DNA of 63,979 nt, counting the filler, from Thermoplasmatota archaeon (GTDB taxonomy: Archaea > Thermoplasmatota > E2 > JACPAO01 > JAHFTW01), in assembly GCA_041623215.1 (NCBI GenBank). It is 12 parts of 12 records of this genome, joined end to end, with 100 filler letters (N's around TTAATTAATTAA, not from the genome) between each part and the next. Parts side by side here need not be neighbours in the genome. Positions count along the whole stretch, not along the records: positions 48,713 to 53,925 come from JBFJXH010000131.1; 11 more parts are not named here. The stretch is one strand, 5' to 3'. Below are positions 8,501-54,025 of this stretch, in pieces. A model generated the notes under the pieces. That model searched no databases and had not been told where the DNA came from. It was given only the letters and a program-made list of their open reading frames with translations. Position 1 is the first letter of the stretch. Every line of letters starts with the position of its first letter. The translations under genes were made by a program, and so were the position numbers.

Positions 8501-10960
8501 CCAACGGCCAGCTTGTCGGCCAAGAAGTCGGAGTCGAGTGTCCAGCCCAGCGACTGAGTCGCGCCATGCGACGGCACTTCCAACTCGGACCATGACCGCG
8601 TGACGGGGGGGTCGTAGGAAGCGTATTGTTCAGGGCCCAGCACCTGCACGAGTTCCGCGTGAACCGCGAGGTTGTCCTCTGGCAAGTTGCCGTCGTTGGT
8701 GACAACCAAGGTCACCCGTCGGTCTCCCTCCACCGGGCCCACGAAAGGCGCCACGAGCGAAGTGGCGGCATCTAGCCGGACGTTGCGGTACGGGACCGAG
8801 GACGCCTTGAGCTCCAGGACATTGTTTTCCGGCTTGGTATCCACGGCCGCGAGGGTGTTAATGAGGGCCGTAATGACGAAGTCCCCACTGCTAACGCGGC
8901 TGGCATCCATCTTGAAGCGGACCGTCGTAGGGGGGTCGCCAGGTAGCAATTCGACGCGGGCGGACGAACGAGGGGTCAGGCGCTCGCCGTCTTCCGTTGC
9001 CTCGATGGCGCGGACACTTGGGCGTGCAGCGCCCGTTGTAGCCGGCGCCACATCGAGGGCCACCTCGGCCTTGAATGGCAAAGTGCCCGCGTTGACAACG
9101 TCGACTTCCACGTCAACGGTCCCGGCCGCGAACACCGCGGCCGCTTCGCCGGGTTGGAAGTCAGCGACGTTGAGGAGAATCGATGCTAGATCATCGGGGA
9201 CAACACGAACGTCTTGCACCGCCGCTTCAATGGCGTGCTTCGCTTCGGTAATGACCATGCTGTGAATGGTCCAATCGATGAGCCGCTTGCAGTCGTGCGC
9301 TGCCAAAGGCGCGCCCGCGGGTTGTTGAGGCCACGCGGCAAGGCGCAGGCGAATTTCGTCGCCTGCCAGGCTCGACAAGTCAAATTCGTTCTGCCAGTGG
9401 TCTAAGTGCACGTGGTGACGGAATTTGCCCTGGGACGACGGTTGAGCCGGTTCGCGTTTGGCCGCCTCCGGCACAACAACTGTATCGAATGGGAAGCCGG
9501 GCAGTTCGCCATTTGGCTGACGAAGGTCCGTGCTGCGAACATCGTAGCCCACGGTTACCGGGTCACGATGCTGGCGAATCCACGTCAAGGGCCATTCGCC
9601 ATTTTCGAGGCGGACTTGGTATTCGAGCCCCACCACAGCTCGCTGGGTGACCGGCTGGTCATCCGGTTGAGCACCACCGTAGTAGCCAAGCTTGCCGCTG
9701 TGCGCAAGCGTGAGAATGGGGCGGCTAGCGGATGACAGGTCAATTGGGTCGGTGACAATCATGGCCGCGTCAGCGTAGGCATCGGAGCGGCGCGGTGAAT
9801 TGTCAAGGCAGGTCCGCAAGCGGAACTCGGGAATCCTTGGTTCGGGGTTGTCCGCCGTGGGAAGGTTTTCCCACGGCTTGAAGTCCTGGGTGAGGACCTC
9901 TGGCTCAACACTGCCACCCTGCAGAATCGCATCGGTAAAGCCAGGCTGTGCCTCGTAAAGCGCAGCCGGCCCGGTCGGCGTCAGAGCGACGAGGCGGACC
10001 TCTTCGACCATCCATCCGTACGGAGTCCGCGAAGTGTCGTGGCCGGCGCGCACATCCGATCCATCGGCGTGCGCGTAGCTGCCGGGGGCATGATGAAGTA
10101 GGAACCGGACCTTGATGTCACGGCCGACGTAGTCATCCAGTGGGACGGAAACGGGCGTCGTGGCTTTACCGGGGCTCGTGCCGTGGTACACAACGAGATC
10201 GGTCCAGGATCGTGCCTCGTCCGGCGGGGAAACGCTCACGCCCGCGGTCGGCTCGTCCACAACGGCGACTTGGACGCGGGCAATCGCATGGCCACCCGTG
10301 TCAACCCAGTGGCGGAATTCTAGGCGCGGCGCAGCACCGGCTACAGTGATGTCGCCGGGAACCTGTAGGATTGCGTCGGTGGCCACGCGGCCAATAGGAG
10401 CGTCAAGACGCGCCGGGCCAGGAAGCACATTGTTGCCTGCTACGTCGTCCTGTTTGGCGTAGGTGCGCAGGCTTCCATCCTGAATGTAAGCACCGAATTG
10501 GCCGCTTCGCGCCTGGGGCACACTTACGTCGGGCACAAAGCCGTCGTCGCCGTTGAGCCATGCCAATTGCGTCGTACCGGTCGCTAGCACGCGCGGCCAA
10601 TCGGGGCCGACGCCCACGTCGAAGGTGGTCCAAAGACGGGGCACGCCGTCTACGTCGATGCGCCCTTCGTCAAGCACAAAGCGACCATCGGGGGCCGCCT
10701 CGACCAGTAGCCGGTACCACCCGGAGGCTTGGCCGGCCAGGACTTTTTGCGTGACGGCAGTCTTGACAGTTTTCTCTGTAAGCACCAAGGGATTACCGAC
10801 GGTTGTCCAGCCTGCGTCGGCGTGTTCCGGCGGGTCGCCCTCCACGTTGTCCGTGGCCCAGTGTTGCAACGAGACATTGAATGGGCCACCCAGGTACGTC
10901 ACCGAGGCCAGGAAGTCCTTCACTTCGGCATCCCCGTTTTCGTCTCGGAACGCCAAGGCC
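5559..10960 (-). CDS. Fragment of a giant (>1800 aa) cell-surface protein with CARDB/Ig-like and jelly-roll modules and an embedded DJ-1/PfpI-like domain; partial at both ends
   Basis: One open frame across the contig; CARDB-like VxNxG and DTKPENN motifs; DJ-1-like segments RVAVILAPDF, YGALLLFG, VVAAIGPA, GAHFV, LVTA. Confidence 0.75.
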
Positions 10961-11060
10961 NNNNNNNNNNNNNNNNNNNNNNNNNNNNNNNNNNNNNNNN
11001 NNNNTTAATTAATTAANNNNNNNNNNNNNNNNNNNNNNNNNNNNNNNNNNNNNNNNNNNN

Positions 11061-46253: not shown

Positions 46254-46520
46254 GGCCTATCCTCGTCTACAATGCGGGCACGTGGCCGGTGGACCTTAAC
46301 CATGCCAGCTTGATGGAATCGGGCCGGGTCGCATGTCCTGCCAAACTTGGATTCGCTTGCCCGTTGATGGCCCAAGGATGCGCGGCGTCACGACCAAAAT
46401 GGGTCCCAACAAGCAATTCTTCCGAGCCGTTTGGCCGCCGTCCGATGGTCGATTTTGTATCGAATTTGCGCGGATGCAGGCCGCTTCGCGTCAGGCGTCT
46501 CTGGGCCCCGCGCGGGGCGG

Positions 46521-46602
46521 TTTACACTGGGTCAACTAACCCGTCGCTCGCGAAGCGAGTCTGTGAGTGGAGCGAGCGGTCGGGTCGCGTGCCTTGTAAG
46601 CC
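46521..46602 (-). mobile_element. Degenerate integron attC-like site
   Basis: Homologous to 48081-48161 (CCG.CGCTCGCGAAGCGAG...GAGCG.TCGGGTCG.GTG.CTTGT.A), 38 nt after the ABM stop; core triplets mutated. Confidence 0.6.
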
Positions 46603-46640
46603 GTCGCGCCGACCGCCCGCATCATGCCCATCTCGTCGAT

Positions 46641-47027
46641 CTACAAGGTCACGGTGACGCCGATGCGGTGGAATCCGCCGATTCGACGGTGGATGCCCTT
46701 CGGGCTCCAATTGGCGAGCCCGGCAAGCATTTCCTCATTGAAGTCGCCAAACGCATGCAATTCAGCCAACTCCGAAGCCTCCAGCAGCTTCGGCATGAAC
46801 TTCGAGACCGCGAGGCCGTTCATGTGGGCTTTGGCGCCATCATTTCCGACGAACCACTCATGGATCGTCGCCGTCTTTCCAGCATCATCCATGAACCATT
46901 CATAGACGACGGTGCCGGGCTCGGTCGCCTCGATGGCCTGGCTCGTCTCAGCACAGGCCTGGCGGAAGTCGTCTGCGTCCTTGATGTTCCAGATCGTTGT
47001 CCAGCCGGTCAATTCTGCTTGTGTCAT
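46641..47027 (-). CDS. ABM/Dabb-fold protein (putative quinol monooxygenase family)
   Basis: EPGTVVYEWF, IHEWF....A.AH, GGF.R. Confidence 0.8.
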   Translation of the reverse strand: MTQAELTGWTTIWNIKDADDFRQACAETSQAIEATEPGTVVYEWFMDDAGKTATIHEWFVGNDGAKAHMNGLAVSKFMPKLLEASELAELHAFGDFNEEMLAGLANWSPKGIHRRIGGFHRIGVTVTL

Positions 47028-47136
47028 GTTTGTTGTCTCCTTGGGTGTCCCGGGGCGTTTTTGCCACGGAGCTAGGCACCACGTAATGGTGGGCGGACTA
47101 AAGGAGGCAGGTCAACAATGTGTGAGTAGCGTGCAG

Positions 47137-48027
47137 TCACGACGCCCGACGGGCGAGATGAGGCCGGTCCTCGTAACGTCCCTGTTCTTCCCACATGCGC
47201 GCGACCAATGCGGGCACTGGGCAGCCCAAGGACAGATCGAAGAACCCCCAAGGAGTCAATCGGTAGGCGCCGTCGGCATCCTTCTGGATCGAACGGATCT
47301 CGACCAGTCCGTCGAGGGTCCGGGATAACGGCGCGTCGCCGATCCCCATGTGCTGCCGCAGTTCTGAGTACGTCAGGCCGCCGCTGAATCCGAGTGCCGT
47401 GATGACCGGACCGTGGTGGCGCCGCACACATGCCGCCGTGAACCGCTTGGCGGTCGTCAACGGGTGTTCGCCGGCTGCATCTCGATGCAATTTTGCAAAG
47501 TGCTTGGCCAATTCGGAGAACGATTCGACTGCATCGTGGTAGTCAGATGGATCCGGCGGTCGCTCCGGCACGAACGAGCCAGCTACAAGAGGAAGATCTG
47601 CACCAGAATGGCTGCCGTGGTAACGGTCTGCTTTTCCGATGGTCAACACAAAGATTGCTGCTCCGACGGCGTGCGCGGCGGGCTCGATTGTATACGTGAC
47701 CTTCTCGCCATCATCTCGGGACATGAAGCCATTGTCGACCAGCATCGCAACCTTTGGTGCCAACGATCCGCTTGCCAAGCCCCCTAGGCCGCGCTGAATC
47801 TCGTTGAAGGACATGGTTCCATGATAGCTCATCAACACTAAGATATCCAAAATCCAACGGCGGAATACCAATCCCCGGGCCTCCATGAACCGTTGCCCCG
47901 CCTCCGTTGAAGGATCGAGGTTCAATCCGATGCGTTGCCCGATGATGGCCGCTTTTTGCAACAACTTGCGCCGCTCAGAGTCAAGCTCTGCAACGTCGCG
48001 GATGGACAGCAAACAACTGGCAGCCAT
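47137..48027 (-). CDS. Transcriptional regulator with two HxlR-like winged-helix domains
   Basis: RRWILDIL...SFNEIQRGL and LTYSELRQHM...LSRTLDGL...YRLTPWG. Confidence 0.75.
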   Translation of the reverse strand: MAASCLLSIRDVAELDSERRKLLQKAAIIGQRIGLNLDPSTEAGQRFMEARGLVFRRWILDILVLMSYHGTMSFNEIQRGLGGLASGSLAPKVAMLVDNGFMSRDDGEKVTYTIEPAAHAVGAAIFVLTIGKADRYHGSHSGADLPLVAGSFVPERPPDPSDYHDAVESFSELAKHFAKLHRDAAGEHPLTTAKRFTAACVRRHHGPVITALGFSGGLTYSELRQHMGIGDAPLSRTLDGLVEIRSIQKDADGAYRLTPWGFFDLSLGCPVPALVARMWEEQGRYEDRPHLARRAS

Positions 48028-48080
48028 GTCAAGGCATTTTCCGCCGTCTACTCAAGTTCTTCCGAAGGCGGACTGAGGGT

Positions 48081-48161
48081 GGATAAGGGTCGAAGTGACC
48101 CGACGCTCGCGAAGCGAGCCGGCGAGCGCAGCGAGCGGTCGGGTCGAGTGACTTGTTATGC
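48081..48161 (-). mobile_element. Integron attC site (R' triplet mutated GTT->CTT)
   Basis: Minus strand: GCATAAC-AAGTC-ACTCGAC...GTCACT-TCGACC-CTTATCC; palindromic core with extrahelical G and T on the + (bottom) strand. Confidence 0.75.
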
Positions 48162-48213
48162 AGCCGACGATACAGGACTCGATGGTTAGGAGTGTTTACA
48201 CTGACGGCAGTCC

Positions 48214-48504
48214 TTATAGCCCGGCCCCACCCAAAGGAATGGTTTCGGTGCGATTGCTCATGCCCGCAATCATGTGGCGGCCTTCCGCGATTGCGCGTTG
48301 AACGGCTGGCAAGGAAAGCGATGCTTCGTGCTGTTCCTGGGATTCCCAGACTTCGGTAATCCACAGGTCTTCCTCGTTTGATGGGTCCTCGGCAATGATG
48401 TAGCTCAAGCAACCTGGCATATCCTTGGTGCCCTCGAGAAGTATCTTTGCAAGGGCCGCGCGATTGCCCGGCGTCGCAGTCATTTTTCCAATCAATCCGA
48501 ACAT
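48214..48504 (-). CDS. ABM-family (putative quinol monooxygenase) protein, cassette-borne
   Basis: MFGLIGKM.A.PG.R, MPGCLSY, ITEVWES...H.ASL. Confidence 0.88.
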   Translation of the reverse strand: MFGLIGKMTATPGNRAALAKILLEGTKDMPGCLSYIIAEDPSNEEDLWITEVWESQEQHEASLSLPAVQRAIAEGRHMIAGMSNRTETIPLGGAGL

Positions 48505-48560
48505 CCAAAACGCTCCACGGCCAAACCCGCACATAACCTCCTCGGCTCGCCAGTCCAGCC

Positions 48561-48604
48561 GCTGCATAACAAGTTACTCAACGGACCCATTGATTTCGTT
48601 AGGC
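48561..48604. mobile_element. Upstream recombination site of the ABM cassette (core GTTATGC on minus strand; short attC-like remnant facing +)
   Basis: GCTGCATAAC (48561-48570) is the exact reverse complement of GTTATGCAGC (48155-48164); followed by AAGTT-ACTCAAC and GTTAGGC. Confidence 0.6.
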
Positions 48605-48712
48605 TCGTCGAANNNNNNNNNNNNNNNNNNNNNNNNNNNNNNNNNNNNNNNNNNNNTTAATTAATTAANNNNNNNNNNNNNNNNNNNNNNNNNNNNNNNN
48701 NNNNNNNNNNNN

Positions 48713-48798
48713 AGCGGAGCCGACGCACCCTGGACAGAGCCCCAAGATGCGGCAAACAATACAAGCACAACAGTTGCGGCGCGCCACTGACCAACCAT
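48713..48798 (-). CDS. N-terminus (signal peptide) of a secreted protein, truncated by contig end
   Basis: MVGQWRAATVVLVLFAASWGSVQGASAP, divergent from amnB. Confidence 0.4.
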
Positions 48799-48910
48799 GC
48801 CATAGCATCCCGCTCGCAGTTTTTATCGCTTGTGTGGCGGCGCGGCGGCGCGGTCGCTTCGCAGGATGCGCGACCATGACGCCTTAATCGGCGACGGAAG
48901 TGGCGACGCC

Positions 48911-49834
48911 GTGTCTCAGGAACGCATCGTCGCTGGCTGCCTCGCCCCTCACCCCCCGCATCTGGTGTATGCCGATAATCCGGATGCCAACGAGCCGCAG
49001 TCGCAGGGCGGCTGGGAACCCATCCGATGGGGCTACGAACGCCTCCGCCACAGCTTGGCCAGGGCGGGTCGCGAATTCGACGTGATTATCGTCCATTCAC
49101 CCCACTGGCGCACCCGCGTCGGACACCATTTGCTTGGCGTTTCCCATTTCTCCAACATCAGTGTTGATCCCATTTTCCCCAACCTGTTTCGCTACCAATG
49201 CGACATCGACGTTGACGTGGAACTTGCCGAGGACATCGCGGCGCGCGGCGCGGAGGCCGGCCTGGTGACGAAGATGATGCGCAACCCGGACTTTCGGGTC
49301 GATTACGGCACCATCGCCGCCTGCCACATGGTACGGCCGGAATGGGACAAACCCATCGTCGGCATCAGTAGTTGCAATGTGTACAACGACTACTCCAACG
49401 AAGTGGGTCAAGCACAGCAACGAGCCCTTGGCGAAGCAACCCGTGCCGCCGTTGAGGCATCGGGCAAACGGGCCTTGCTGCTGGCATCCAACAGCATCAG
49501 CCACCGCCATTTCACGCGCGAAGGCGCCTTGCCGGAGGACATGAGCCGAGAGCACATCTACCATCACGGGCAATACCAGTGGGATATGCACGCCATCCGA
49601 CTCATGCGTGACGGCTTGGGCCGCCAACTCTTCGACGAGATGCCTGACCTCATCGACCAGGCGACGTCCGAAGCGGATGCCGGCTGCCTGTCTTGGCTGC
49701 TGGCGGCACTCGGCTTCCCCGATTACCCCGCCGAATTGCACGGCTACGGGACCGTCATCGGGACCGGCAACGCCGTCGTCGAATGGGACCCCGACGAAGC
49801 GACGCGCGTGGTGACGCCGAGGTTGATGACATGA
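48911..49834 (+). CDS. amnB: 2-aminophenol 1,6-dioxygenase beta (catalytic) subunit, LigB family
   Basis: LAPHPPHLVY..NP..NEP.SQGGWE, HSPHW, SVDPIFPN.FRY, MMRNP.FRVDYGTI, LASN..SH, YGTVIGTGNAV closely match AmnB/CnbCb as I recall them; Fe-ligand His/His/Glu present. Confidence 0.93.
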   Translation: MSQERIVAGCLAPHPPHLVYADNPDANEPQSQGGWEPIRWGYERLRHSLARAGREFDVIIVHSPHWRTRVGHHLLGVSHFSNISVDPIFPNLFRYQCDIDVDVELAEDIAARGAEAGLVTKMMRNPDFRVDYGTIAACHMVRPEWDKPIVGISSCNVYNDYSNEVGQAQQRALGEATRAAVEASGKRALLLASNSISHRHFTREGALPEDMSREHIYHHGQYQWDMHAIRLMRDGLGRQLFDEMPDLIDQATSEADAGCLSWLLAALGFPDYPAELHGYGTVIGTGNAVVEWDPDEATRVVTPRLMT

Positions 49835-51258
49835 CCGCCGCATTGGTAGGCTCCTTTGTGGTGCCCCCCTACCCGCACCCGCTGTTGGTCCCTGACGCCA
49901 ACCCGGCCTACCAGCGCCTCCGCGACGCCTACGACGACGTGCGGGCGCGCATTGAAGAACTGGACCCGGACGTCATCCTGCTCTATTCGACGCAGTGGCT
50001 CTCCGTCATCGGCCACCAAGTGCAGGCCCGGCCGGAGCCCGAATGGGTCCACGTTGACCAAGAATGGCATGAACTAGGATCGATTCCCTACAAGTTCCGT
50101 ATGGACGCCGAATTTGGTGCCCACTACGTTGCCGCCGGGCAGGCACGCGGTTTGGAGATGCGCGGCGTCGACTACCACGGCTTTCCCATCGACACCGGCA
50201 GCGTCGTGGCGTTGAAGTTGCTCAATCCCGACAACCGATATGCCGCGTCAGTCGTCAGTTGCAACATGTACGCCGACCGCGCCGAAACCATTGTGCTTGG
50301 CAAGGCGGCCCGCGACGCCGTGGCGGCCTCCGGCAAGCGCGTGGTCGCCGTCGCGGTTACGGCCCTGTCCAACCGAGTTCACACCGATGCCCGCGCGTTT
50401 ACCGATGACTGCATTCACAGCCTCAAGGACGACGAATGGAACCGCAAATACCTAGAGTTCCTAGAGCGGGGCCGGCTCGAAGACGCCAGCCAATTGGCCC
50501 GCGAGTTTTCGCGCCAGGCCAACGGCGACCAGCGCATGAAGGCAATCTGGTGGCTGAATGCCGTCATGGGCCAGTCGAACCACTTCGACGGTGAACTATT
50601 CGCGTATGAGCCGGTGTACGGAGCCGGCTGCGCCCTTGTTGGCCTCACCCCCACGGCCAAAGCGGCCGACGAGGCGGAATACGACGAAGATGACGCCGAA
50701 GTCTACACCGGCGACCGCAACGTCCTGGGTGGTGTCAATGCCTTCGAGGCCGCAGATGGCACACCCGATGGCGACGAGGACACGTCCCCTGCGGCGCCTG
50801 CCGGCGCCCGGGCAAACGCGGCAAGCCCCGGGGGCATCATACAAGCAACGGCCGCCCCCAAACCGGTTGGCGCTTACCCGCATGCCAGGCGCGTCGGCGA
50901 CCTACTGTACCTATCAGGACTAGGTCCTCGAGACCCCGAAACCAATGCGGTGCCGGGCGGCCCCGTGCGCGATGCCCAAGGCAAGCCGCTCGACTACGAC
51001 GTGGCAGCGCAAACGGAGGCCGTTGTGGCCAACATGAAGCGCGTGCTAGCTGCAAGCGGCTGCACCATTAACGACGTGGTGGATGTGACGTGTTTCTTGA
51101 TTGACATGGACCGAGACTTTGCCGCCTTCAACGCGGTCTACGGCAAGCACTTTGGCGATGTGCAGGCAACGCGGACGACGCTGGCGATTCAGGCGCTTCC
51201 GACGCCGATTGCCGTCGAGTTCAAGGTGATTGCCAGGGCTTCGCAGCAAACGAAATGA
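49831..51258 (+). CDS. amnA: 2-aminophenol 1,6-dioxygenase alpha subunit fused to a RidA-family (2-aminomuconate deaminase-like) domain
   Basis: YSTQW, HVD.EW.E.G, Y.GFPIDTG, DD.WNR; acidic linker; then APKPVGAYPHARRVGDLLYLSG...FNAVY...TRTT..LPTPIAVEFK; ATGA overlap with amnB. Confidence 0.9.
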   Translation: MTAALVGSFVVPPYPHPLLVPDANPAYQRLRDAYDDVRARIEELDPDVILLYSTQWLSVIGHQVQARPEPEWVHVDQEWHELGSIPYKFRMDAEFGAHYVAAGQARGLEMRGVDYHGFPIDTGSVVALKLLNPDNRYAASVVSCNMYADRAETIVLGKAARDAVAASGKRVVAVAVTALSNRVHTDARAFTDDCIHSLKDDEWNRKYLEFLERGRLEDASQLAREFSRQANGDQRMKAIWWLNAVMGQSNHFDGELFAYEPVYGAGCALVGLTPTAKAADEAEYDEDDAEVYTGDRNVLGGVNAFEAADGTPDGDEDTSPAAPAGARANAASPGGIIQATAAPKPVGAYPHARRVGDLLYLSGLGPRDPETNAVPGGPVRDAQGKPLDYDVAAQTEAVVANMKRVLAASGCTINDVVDVTCFLIDMDRDFAAFNAVYGKHFGDVQATRTTLAIQALPTPIAVEFKVIARASQQTK

Positions 51259-51407
51259 CCTACGAGGCCACGCCACTCCATCCGTGGATGCGGGAATTGG
51301 TGCCCTACTGGCGAGTAGAATCTGAACGGACTGCCGGACATCCCGCAATCATCACATCTCCTTGCAGTTCATCCCCGTCGCTTCCTGCACGCTTCACGCA
51401 GCACCCA

Positions 51408-51962
51408 TCATGCGTTTACCAAGCGCTCGCTACCGGCGACATCGGCAGATTCCAACACGCGCGCCCGACGAGCACGCGGTTTGCGGCGAATCATCACGTA
51501 CACGACAACCATCAAAATCGTAAGAATCAGATTGAGTTGGTAATGAGCAATAACATTCGGTAGCCAATACCCAATGATGCCCGGCGGGTGGGCAACCTTG
51601 GACGGGCCCCAATGCTGAATCCCTTGCGCCACGTGCTCAATTGCGTGGTACGTTTGGAAGAGCACTAGCCCCAACCACCAGTTATCCGCCCCGATTGGAA
51701 GGGGCTTCCAAGCAGACCGCCACAGAAGATAACAAATCAGCAAACTCAGCCAGATGCCCACGTTGAACGCCACGTGGACGAATACTGTGTCAAAGTATTG
51801 GCCGAAGAGACCGAGGGCAGGCCGGATGCCAAGGACGTGTTGGTTCAATTGGATGCTGTGCTCCGCGAAGTGCACCGCTTGCACAACCAACAGCACGCGA
51901 AACATCAATAGTGCCCTGGCGGGAACCGTGCGCACGGACGGGGTGGGCGTTCGCGATACCAT
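51408..51962 (-). CDS. His-rich 4-TM membrane protein (DUF6008-like)
   Basis: QAVHFAEH..Q, HVAFN, QTYHAIEH.AQ, HYQLN (internally duplicated). Confidence 0.65.
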   Translation of the reverse strand: MVSRTPTPSVRTVPARALLMFRVLLVVQAVHFAEHSIQLNQHVLGIRPALGLFGQYFDTVFVHVAFNVGIWLSLLICYLLWRSAWKPLPIGADNWWLGLVLFQTYHAIEHVAQGIQHWGPSKVAHPPGIIGYWLPNVIAHYQLNLILTILMVVVYVMIRRKPRARRARVLESADVAGSERLVNA

Positions 51963-52063
51963 GCTCGGGGCAGGCGCCGAGCTCTGGTGGTTCACTAGCC
52001 ACAACTGCCCCGTCGCCTCAAAAACACAATTGATGCTGTCACAAGGGGCATTTGGGCCGGGGG

Positions 52064-52138
52064 GTTGGACGGTTTGACTTCAGCCGTCGCGAGCCGCCGG
52101 GTCAGAGGCGCGCGAAGGGGTTGAGTGATTTGTTAGAC
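52064..52138 (-). mobile_element. Integron attC site, partly degenerate
   Basis: Minus strand GTCTAAC-AAATC-ACTCAAC 10 nt after the stop of the upstream gene, imperfect stem, right end GTCCAAC instead of GTTRRRY. Confidence 0.7.
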
Positions 52139-52148
52139 TACCGTGAAT

Positions 52149-53501
52149 CTATGTCGTCCTTGCGCTTGCCCACCACAGCCGAGGGCCTTCCGACGTACTC
52201 ATTGTCCAAGCGGTGTGAACAGTGGCATCCGGTGCAATGTCCACCATCAAGTAGTCGCCGAGTGACCGACTAGGAGCATCCGGCCCTGTGCAGCTCAGGC
52301 CCACCACGCACATCGGCCCCCGAAGCACAGGGTCACTTGACAGCAGCAAATTGGATTGACGCGGATTGGTCGTGTGGGCATCCACAATGTCGACCACGTA
52401 CGGATACCACTCCACGTCTTTGGCGACCTCGTCAGGGTTCCCGTGCCCGCCCGGGGCCCCATAGTAGGCAATCGCAACGTGGCCCGGGCGCCCTGCCGCA
52501 ATCCATGGCATGGCCGTCGTGCCTTCGGGGTTGCCAACGAGCACCGGCGGATTCCAGGTGACCCCCTTGTCGATAGACGAAGCATAGAACACCTGTAGCC
52601 GGTCCCCATTTGTTTCGGCCCATACAACGTACACATTACCTGCAGAATCAACGGCAGGAACAACGAAAACCCAACCCGTTCGATTGGCAGTAGAATGGAC
52701 GACATGCGATGAAAGCGTCTCCCCCCCGTCGGTGCTGCGATAGAGGGTTGGGCCCCAGGCACTTTCGTCGTCCGTCACAAAAGGATCAACCAAGCGTGCA
52801 GCGTAGATGGTTCCATCTGGCGCCACGCGGGGCACGCCGGCAAAGCTCCCGCCGTCGTCTACTATGCCTGACCCTTCCAAGTTCGTTTGCGTTGGGAACG
52901 ACTGGCCACCATCCTTGCTCACTGCAATCCAATAGCCAGTCTCCCGCTGGTTCCATGCCGCCACCACCATGCCCTCGTCTCCAGCGGCCAACCAGGGACG
53001 GTCGCCTTCAGGAATCTGGAAGATGGCGGGGGTCTGCATCATCCAGGTTTTGCCTCGGTCCTCGCTGCTCGATAGTTGTGCGTTCGCACCAGAAAGGTCC
53101 GTGAAGTAGACGTTTCCTGCGTCATCGATGGCAACATCACCTTCAAGGCCAAACGGCAGGTTCGAGATTCCCGCGCCCGCATTCAACCATTCGACGTAAT
53201 CAAACGTTGCTCCATTGTCATGACTCACCCACAGCCGAGCCGCGTTTGCAGGAAAGGTCGTTCCACCGGGCCCGGTGATGTAGATTGTACCACCCGGCCC
53301 GACTGCTACACTAGGCTCCCCTGCGAAACTGTCTGGTGTGACAAGCTTGGTGCCCGTAAGCGCGAAGGTTGCCTCCACCCCCACGGAGCCTTCGGGTGGA
53401 ATTGAAGGGCTGCCATTCTCCGCCAAGCAGCCTGCGAGGATTGAGGCGATGGCCAGAGATGCTAAGGTTAGGCCCCGGGCGGTAATCAATACAGTGCCCA
53501 T
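52149..53501 (-). CDS. BNR/Asp-box (sialidase-fold) lipoprotein, cassette-borne
   Basis: Lipobox LAGC; Asp-boxes SHDNGATF, SEDRGKTW, SKDGGQSF, STDGGET, SIDKGVTW; R.LGDY. Confidence 0.85.
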   Translation of the reverse strand: MGTVLITARGLTLASLAIASILAGCLAENGSPSIPPEGSVGVEATFALTGTKLVTPDSFAGEPSVAVGPGGTIYITGPGGTTFPANAARLWVSHDNGATFDYVEWLNAGAGISNLPFGLEGDVAIDDAGNVYFTDLSGANAQLSSSEDRGKTWMMQTPAIFQIPEGDRPWLAAGDEGMVVAAWNQRETGYWIAVSKDGGQSFPTQTNLEGSGIVDDGGSFAGVPRVAPDGTIYAARLVDPFVTDDESAWGPTLYRSTDGGETLSSHVVHSTANRTGWVFVVPAVDSAGNVYVVWAETNGDRLQVFYASSIDKGVTWNPPVLVGNPEGTTAMPWIAAGRPGHVAIAYYGAPGGHGNPDEVAKDVEWYPYVVDIVDAHTTNPRQSNLLLSSDPVLRGPMCVVGLSCTGPDAPSRSLGDYLMVDIAPDATVHTAWTMSTSEGPRLWWASARTT

Positions 53502-53562
53502 TAGAAGAAACGCTCCATTGCTCCAAAAAGCCGCCCGTGGTACATGAAGGCACGCGTGGGGA

Positions 53563-53628
53563 GTCTAACGGTTGAGCTAACGCGCCCGGAGCCGTAGGCG
53601 TAGGGTCGCGTTGAGCGATTTGTTATCT
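53563..53628 (-). mobile_element. Canonical integron attC site (66 nt)
   Basis: + (bottom) strand gtctaac-ggttga-gctaac-gcgccc-loop-ggg[t]cgc-gtt[g]agc-gattt-gttatct: R/L boxes, 6/5-nt spacers, extrahelical T and G. Confidence 0.88.
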
Positions 53629-53633
53629 CGCGT

Positions 53634-53924
53634 TCACGCCCGCGCGAGGCGGCTGAGGTTCTCATCGATTGCGTTGGCCCATTCACCGTGCGTGACCTCG
53701 ACGACGGGTCGTTGCCCGGCAGAGCATGCACTGGAGATGACCACATCGGGCCGTAGCGTGCGGTATAGTCGAAGGCTTTGCGCCAGGTCTTCGGGTCCAC
53801 CACCCGCATGTTCAAACGTCAGCGTGGCCCAATCGCCGTTCGACTGAAACAGGGTGTCTCCCGTGAAGAGGTATGTTCTCCCGCTTCGAGGCGCTAATAG
53901 AAACGAGATGCTCCCGCCAGCGGG
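53634..53924 (-). CDS. MBL-fold metallo-hydrolase C-terminus (5' partial), cassette-borne
   Basis: Manual translation GSISFL...TYLFTGDTLF...SLRLYRTLRPDVVISS; TGA 5 nt before the attC R'' box. Confidence 0.7.
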   Translation of the reverse strand, partial: PAGGSISFLLAPRSGRTYLFTGDTLFQSNGDWATLTFEHAGGGPEDLAQSLRLYRTLRPDVVISSACSAGQRPVVEVTHGEWANAIDENLSRLARA

Positions 53925-54025
53925 CNNNNNNNNNNNNNNNNNNNNNNNNNNNNNNNNNNNNNNNNNNNNTTAATTAATTAANNNNNNNNNNNNNNNNNNN
54001 NNNNNNNNNNNNNNNNNNNNNNNNN

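Follow-up and report, generated by a model that had tools for sequence, protein, structure and literature searches.

The array at the end of contig C131 is, in our judgement, probably the tail of a chromosomal integron that is likely headed by its own attI site without an integrase gene and likely served in trans by one distant IntI. More generally, a pattern of one integrase accompanied by many attI-headed satellite arrays is well supported in this archaeal family by the sequences compared. The window (the whole stretch of DNA that was analysed, 63,979 nucleotides) consists of 12 contig pieces joined by N spacers; C131 of genome G000 occupies positions 48713-53925, and the array of interest is the last 1.9 kb of this contig. 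The features on C131 are as follows:

53634..53925, minus strand: MBL-fold hydrolase cassette gene, 3' part (96 aa), cut by the contig end
53563..53628, minus strand: attC1, intact 66-nt site with its boxes (70.6 bits)
52149..53501, minus strand: BNR-repeat (sialidase-like) protein cassette gene, 450 aa
52064..52138, minus strand: attC2, decayed terminal site with R'' intact and R' GTCCAAC (14.4 bits)
51408..52004, minus strand: membrane-protein gene within the same insertion, with no attC detected after the gene
51255..51260, plus strand: stranded cyclase-gene start ATG ACC at one edge of the insertion, overlapping with the stop of LigB-RidA
48830..51258, plus strand: resident LigB and LigB-RidA genes, the family-wide chromosomal flank

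The first-pass annotation had described a textbook 66-nt attC at 53563-53628, beginning 5 nt past the MBL stop codon, and its boxes, spacers, extrahelical bases and coordinates are all present in the sequence. R'' AGATAAC (53628-53622) is followed by a 5-nt spacer, R' GTTAGAC (53569-53563) comes after a 6-nt spacer, L'' and L' are paired with extrahelical G and T on the bottom strand, and the G|TT crossover falls at 53569/53568. The covariance-model check suggested there was run with a model built from 16 attCs, all from other genomes, and it recovered attC1 with an E-value of 2.8e-17; the model pairs covary across these 16 sites (96.7% paired, 6 pairs with two-sided changes). Moreover, attC1 is identical at 62 of 66 positions to an attC of the relative G007. 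A strict attC pattern, which was composed after the site had been seen, matched once in the genome (1.94 Mb) and had no match in any of 3 simulated genomes. Compared with shuffled sequences, folding energies were not significant (z of -1.3 for attC1 and -0.55 for attC2). The second site claimed at the time stands only in part: its R'' GTCTAAC (52138-52132), 10 nt past the BNR stop, does complement the R' of attC1 exactly, but its R' lacks GTT and its model E-value is 0.2. From these motifs, attC2 is likely no longer recombinogenic.

The start heptamer of the BNR cassette, GTTAGAC, complements the cassette's own R'' GTCTAAC, as expected of an integron cassette, and the same complementarity between start heptamer and R'' occurs in 7 of 9 consecutive pairs in the main array of G007. 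With two sites 1.4 kb apart, the second of them weak, the array agrees with the definition of a CALIN (at least two attC within 4 kb, intI not nearby) and differs from a complete integron in that intI is not adjacent, the sole IntI match being on contig C96. The MBL gene is accessory, being found in 1 of 32 family genomes (none of the 31 others), which is expected because it is cassette-borne. Its hydrolase label holds loosely: the Pfam match is weak (E 8.6e-4, below cut-off), while its Atlas neighbours include MBL-fold clusters. The best named homologues of the BNR protein are archaeal (47%), and the membrane-protein gene has weak homologues in 2 of the 31 other family genomes. The AT-richness ascribed to the region turned out to be slight (GC 0.598 against 0.626 +/- 0.017 across genome windows, the 5.8th percentile); GC3 is 0.64-0.65 in the array genes against 0.76 in the flanking genes.

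The host bin is archaeal, with an rpoB_arch score of 924.8 bits against a cut-off of 811, and its RpoB is 83-88% identical to proteins named Thermoplasmatota or Thermoplasmata archaeon; the host is, by these named RpoB relatives, an uncultured archaeon of the Thermoplasmatota. The bin is 88% complete with 0.04% contamination and a size of 1.94 Mb. Because the LigB-RidA gene is matched in 28 of the 31 other family genomes, C131 is native to its archaeal host. The earlier reading of an integron gene-cassette array on an archaeal contig is therefore borne out on both counts, though it was incomplete, and at the level of sequence the array consists of genuine integron gene cassettes, carried by an uncultured archaeon on its chromosome.

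The first-pass annotation had noted that intI is absent from the window and advised a search for IntI. While intI is indeed not beside the array, the bin does encode an IntI with the integron-specific insert, on C96 and outside C131. It matches TIGR02249 at 375.7 bits (cut-off 265), the only such match in G000, and tblastn across the genome found no IntI piece beyond C96. The 5' end (model positions 1-48) is unassembled at the contig end; the remaining 277 aa are open without stops and conserve R, K, H, R, H, Y and the insert. The closest solved structure is IntI4 (PDB 2A3V, E 8.5e-69). At C96:4536-6759, the end of intI overlaps with the beginning of a polB-like gene, here the N-terminal half of a split one; this polB gene is matched in 23 of 31 relatives, and the intI-polB order is the same in G010.

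IntI was found above cut-off in 9 of 61 relatives, all of them inside the family (9 of 32 family genomes), and in a phylum sample it occurred in 6 of 18 other family genomes and in 3 of 382 genomes outside the family. In trees made by FastTree, with SH-like support, 12 distinct Thermoplasmatota IntIs form one clade among named rows (SH 96), nested in bacterial IntIs beside MAGs of Nitrospirota, Planctomycetota and Riflebacteria, among the matches listed; when unnamed homologues are included, the nine family IntIs fall within a 44-row clade (SH 85). The branching departs from strictly vertical descent: G021 clusters with G010 and G018, and the clade also takes in G106 and G121, which belong to other families. 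The IntI of G079 sits apart on a long branch and lacks the shared attI. This divergent protein (L297) is possibly a second acquisition in the phylum. In G121, two IntIs (L295, L298) each have the same attI beside them. The genes next to intI differ among genera: polB adjoins it in G000 and G010, G013, G017 and G021 have a flank in common, and there are four other arrangements. G007 carries a complete integron with at least 10 attCs on one contig; attC sites were found in 13 of the 32 genomes of the family, G007 having 54 and G011 having 50. No IntI was found in the 88%-complete assembly of G006 despite three attI-headed clusters. The intI match of G018 (L010) is in two pieces and that of G025 (L198) is internally deleted, and both still lie beside attI and arrays.

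These data also bear on whether the contig or the integrase entered the bin as bacterial contamination, a reading that is effectively refuted. In its favour, the nearest named outside relatives of the IntI are bacterial (61-67%, among the matches listed), and so are the Atlas clusters neighbouring the MBL fragment. Nevertheless, the low bin contamination, the family-wide LigB-RidA flank, the overlap of intI with a polB gene shared by most relatives and kept in the same order in G010, the single clade of Thermoplasmatota IntIs and the archaeal matches of the BNR protein all speak against it.

The attI site was defined by comparing the nine family IntI loci. A common sequence lies upstream of intI in 8 of 8 relatives, with the consensus GGAAAACCGGTGAATAACAAG|TT and divergence right after GTT, and 12 intI-adjacent attIs align. 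By analogy with attI1, as the available text of PMC12901181 presents it, we infer an L box, a 5-nt spacer and an R box, plus a GTT-like heptamer near -27. Of 4 held-out IntI loci in other families, a matrix from the intI-adjacent sites recovers attI beside 3, and in G000 it ranks copies on C101, C133 and C193 on top (26.5 bits; next 17.0; reversed-genome maximum 21.3). These three copies adjoin housekeeping genes and none is beside intI. They share an identical 22-nt core in a module of 85-90 nt and are 73-86% alike upstream, a comparison biased in that the core served as the anchor; in the per-genome attI model they are weak (E 0.04-0.05). With a loose attI pattern, counts in the reversed control were as high as the real counts, and its matches at G025:C7, G009:C41 and G006:C43, which look like coding DNA, were rejected. 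Exact attI patterns had no match in JGI metagenomes or IMG/VR. Just past attI, C133:4287-5036 and C193:2438-2549 each hold the end of an opposite-strand ORF and are possibly inverted-gene cassettes. TATA-like boxes, seen by eye about 50 nt before the crossover at L022, L195, L198 and L233 in G007, G025 and G020, are possibly an archaeal cassette promoter upstream of attI.

The association of attI with integrase-free clusters extends across the family. Among 33 intI-less attC clusters (39 picked by hand, less 6 with under 1 kb of upstream sequence), 18 have a same-strand attI within 3 kb upstream, against an expectation of 0.07 and none on the opposite strand; two of these positives had been fetched for their attI, which leaves 16 of 31 without them, and the genomes are kin rather than independent. 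No attI is detectable in the other 15. Compared by eye in the 18 clusters, the attI junction complements the first R'' at 7 of 7 positions in nine and at 6 of 7 in seven, and does not complement it in two.

The array on C131 can be placed in this pattern by synteny. The LigB-RidA gene abuts a cyclase gene in G001, G002 and G007 (other genes are found there in G004 and G006), while in G000 LigB-RidA is on C131 and the remainder of the cyclase gene on C193, with the split at cyclase codon 2-3. This remainder lies just upstream of the C193 attI copy, which faces in the direction of the cassettes 95 nt from the end of C193. Because the cyclase start is split between the two contigs and the orientation of attI matches, a single insertion most likely has its ends on C193 and C131, and its order as read from the sequence is most likely attI, unassembled cassettes, MBL, BNR and the membrane gene. 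C193, like C133, had first been read as an empty satellite; for C193 that reading was replaced after the cyclase-gene synteny. The side of the module that faces intI elsewhere now faces the cyclase gene severed from its operon (C193:2290-2400), for which it might supply a promoter. The contig extension proposed in the first-pass annotation did not succeed, as no contig was found over the open end of the array; none bridges C131 and C193 or the gap in the main locus either.

This synteny weighs on two other readings of the array. That it is the distal end of the main integron beside intI, broken in assembly, would suit the C96 intI and the array both reaching contig ends in compatible orientations. 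However, in G000 it is C54 that holds the genes found before polB in G002 and G006, so that the main integron locus is placed at C96-C54, perhaps with C130 between (in G004, katG occupies that place); the partner of C131 is most likely C193, which contradicts C131 as the tail of the C96 integron and makes this reading highly improbable. The other holds that the array is an ordinary CALIN that arose by cassette insertion at attG and lacks an attI of its own, the C193 copy belonging elsewhere. This route was shown experimentally in bacteria, as far as the available text of 10.1101/2022.09.11.507474 goes; the gap between C131 and C193 is unbridged, 15 of the 33 clusters have no detectable attI, and the last attC of C101 interrupts the reading frame of a conserved gene at GTT, an intact paralogue of this gene being present on C54. 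We nevertheless consider it quite improbable for C131, where the cyclase gene is split at its start with a correctly oriented attI on the other contig and where the terminal R' begins with GTC and not GWT, so that an attI head is likely. The C101 tail junction itself looks like an attG-type insertion at the sequence level. C101:1430-2760 (L237) is a closed attI-cassette-attC unit after a methylmalonyl-CoA mutase gene, and its junction match is exact.

Two attCs on the neighbouring contig C130, given here with an attI-like junction, were absent from the first-pass annotation:

48564..48592, minus strand: degenerate attI-like junction on C130, with GTTATGC complementing the next R'' (matrix score 11.1)
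48081..48161, minus strand: attC after an ABM monooxygenase gene on C130, a separate cluster (37.5 bits, E 6e-8)
46519..46602, minus strand: decayed attC on C130 (17.3 bits)

The end of C130 was considered as the main attI and rejected, since its matrix score is within background, leaving only a degenerate attI-like junction. Together, positions 46519-48612 form a decayed cluster of the attI-like junction, ABM, attC, an HxlR-like regulator, a small gene, the decayed attC, marC and katG; immediately before the junction, GCCTAAC resembles an R'' and points to a hybrid of the delta-attI type. On C54, positions 8546-11004 hold half attC sites, below the covariance-model threshold, and accessory genes, and are likely the tail of the main array.

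G007 has seven satellites, of about 27-167 nt, and the copy on its contig C1 shares 96% identity with the main platform across 167 nt before it ends sharply at a palindrome. Longer satellite modules end at this palindrome, TATGCCG-N3-CGGCATA, with arms that look like IntI heptamers, and in G007 such an arm, followed by 5 nt and GTT, stands at the head of three other clusters. A uniform G|WT scar was not seen at the left edges of satellites. In a tblastn search near satellites at 20 loci, only the G025 remnant and an intact control scored, with no IntI fragment elsewhere. Several loci of G007 have peculiarities of their own. Upstream of the first cassette of L182 (G007:C1), six to seven tandem 19-mers that are half-site-like end at the junction, and at L192 (G007:C2) the predicted junction of a lone cassette falls, by eye, just after the apparent end of a tRNA gene. 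The G007 cassette at L180:3-341 has DNA matches of 72-74% beside attC sites in G019 and G011, which suggests cassette sharing between genera.

An alternative is that satellites are relics of duplicated or moved integron platforms that have since lost intI, with arrays changing mainly through decay or homologous recombination. Such a history would account for the varying intI neighbours across the family, for the internally deleted intI beside attI in G025 and the split intI match in G018, and for some G011 satellites that are alike for about 30 nt past the palindrome. We regard it as unlikely, in view of the lack of IntI fragments near satellites at the loci searched (the G025 remnant aside), the shortness of the seven G007 satellites, the sharp stop of the C1 copy at the palindrome, the core identity of the G000 copies against their lower upstream identity (with the anchor bias given above) and variant cassette junctions at G|TT in metagenomes.

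These junctions come from near-identical DNA in marine metagenome runs X1-X3, all of one study and available as contigs only, in which the short variant contigs can be assigned to this host only tentatively. A contig of run X1 carries MBL and attC1 over 287 nt with 0 differences and then continues into other sequence from 53567, and a second X1 contig carries the 5' end of BNR over 119 nt with 3 differences and has a different attC-like sequence ahead of it from 53573; run X2 shows a third neighbour (10 nt). The variants break at the G|TT crossover or at the spacer end. The two X1 contigs overlap by 7 nt only, which we take to be insufficient to have produced a chimera in assembly. Among the pieces listed, none bridges the MBL-BNR junction of the window itself. 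The end formed by BNR, attC2 and the flank is conserved in X1 and X2 pieces, which is consistent with a dead terminal attC.

Returning to an attI-headed array served in trans, the proposed mechanism may be outlined as follows. Two steps are seen in the sequences themselves: the genome encodes one IntI with the insert and catalytic residues, and the intI-adjacent attI of the family recurs elsewhere in the chromosome, away from intI, ahead of cassettes with a first junction complementary to the next R''. On synteny, the C193 attI copy and the C131 cassettes would be the ends of one insertion at the cyclase start. Following established integron biochemistry, IntI would act on the folded bottom strand of attC, excising cassettes by attC x attC and inserting them by attC x attI recombination, satellite attIs included, so that cassettes could enter, leave and reorder at any attI copy in trans; the BNR cassette would stay because its attC lost GTT. 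Least certain is the birth of satellites, in which IntI might cut an accessory GTT heptamer upstream of attI and re-insert the attI-bearing piece elsewhere; secondary-site activity is documented for IntI1 in the available parts of PMC10127599 and 10.1101/2022.09.11.507474. Conceivably, though we hold this tentatively and with some doubt, a domesticated IntI copies its own attI around the chromosome, creating a network of landing pads (up to eight per genome) that actively exchange cassettes including archaeal-type genes.

Archaeal integrons previously rested, as far as the available text of PMC9668308 goes, on six integrases and two guessed attI sites. Here, a family with IntI in about a quarter of its genomes has a defined attI and signs of cassette turnover in a natural population, and therefore a native archaeal IntI-attI-attC set can now be assayed. 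The findings also address the origin of integrase-free cassette clusters, over half of which, among those examined here (18/33), carry their own attI, invisible to current software; if true, many CALINs elsewhere may be unrecognised attI-headed satellites. Such heads would have gone unseen because the attI search of IntegronFinder is confined to exact class 1-3 sites close to an integrase. The literature searched, which covered few subscription journals, yielded no report of an IntI clade in Thermoplasmatota, of its attI or of attI-headed CALINs. The cassettes are a known kind of element, and what appears to be new is the architecture of an integrase with attI-headed satellites.

Among known systems, the closest are the archaeal integrons of Ghaly et al. 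(2022; PMC9668308), whose available text describes archaeal attC arrays, six IntIs in 6,718 genomes, for which monophyly is claimed, and two putative attIs. According to its data S1, none of the six IntIs is in its 5 Thermoplasmatota MAGs, and by its table S1 a Thermoplasmatota attC recombined with attI1 in the assay. Our arrays resemble those in attC structure, co-oriented tandem cassettes, mostly intI-less MAG clusters and insertion at G|TT, and differ from what is described there in that 9 of 32 genomes of one family have IntI, 12 attIs align and attI occurs away from intI. CALINs as introduced by Cury et al. (2016; PMC4889954) have at least two attC with intI not nearby, often in genomes that encode IntI, and excision in trans was suggested for them; the C131 array is alike in having attC sites without a nearby intI in an IntI-encoding genome, whereas the four origins proposed in the available text include no attI-headed satellite. 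With attG and SALINs (Loot et al., 10.1101/2022.09.11.507474) the proposed system would share IntI-driven chromosomal spread of cassettes at GWT, the C101 terminal junction being similar; however, in the text available, attG sites share about 3 nt, whereas the heads here are 27-180-nt copies of the platform attI region. Cassettes with delta-attI in class 1 and 2 integrons (PMC12901181; PMC10127599) likewise show misplaced attI pieces and IntI acting at secondary GTT heptamers, but delta-attI, as the available parts of these sources describe it, replaces attC in plasmid arrays, while here attI heads chromosomal arrays between housekeeping genes. Finally, like sedentary chromosomal integrons (VchIntIA/IntI4, PDB 2A3V), the system is chromosomal, with a lineage-associated IntI, homogeneous attCs and up to 54 sites per genome; unlike them, its platform locus shifts between genera and its cassettes are spread over many loci.
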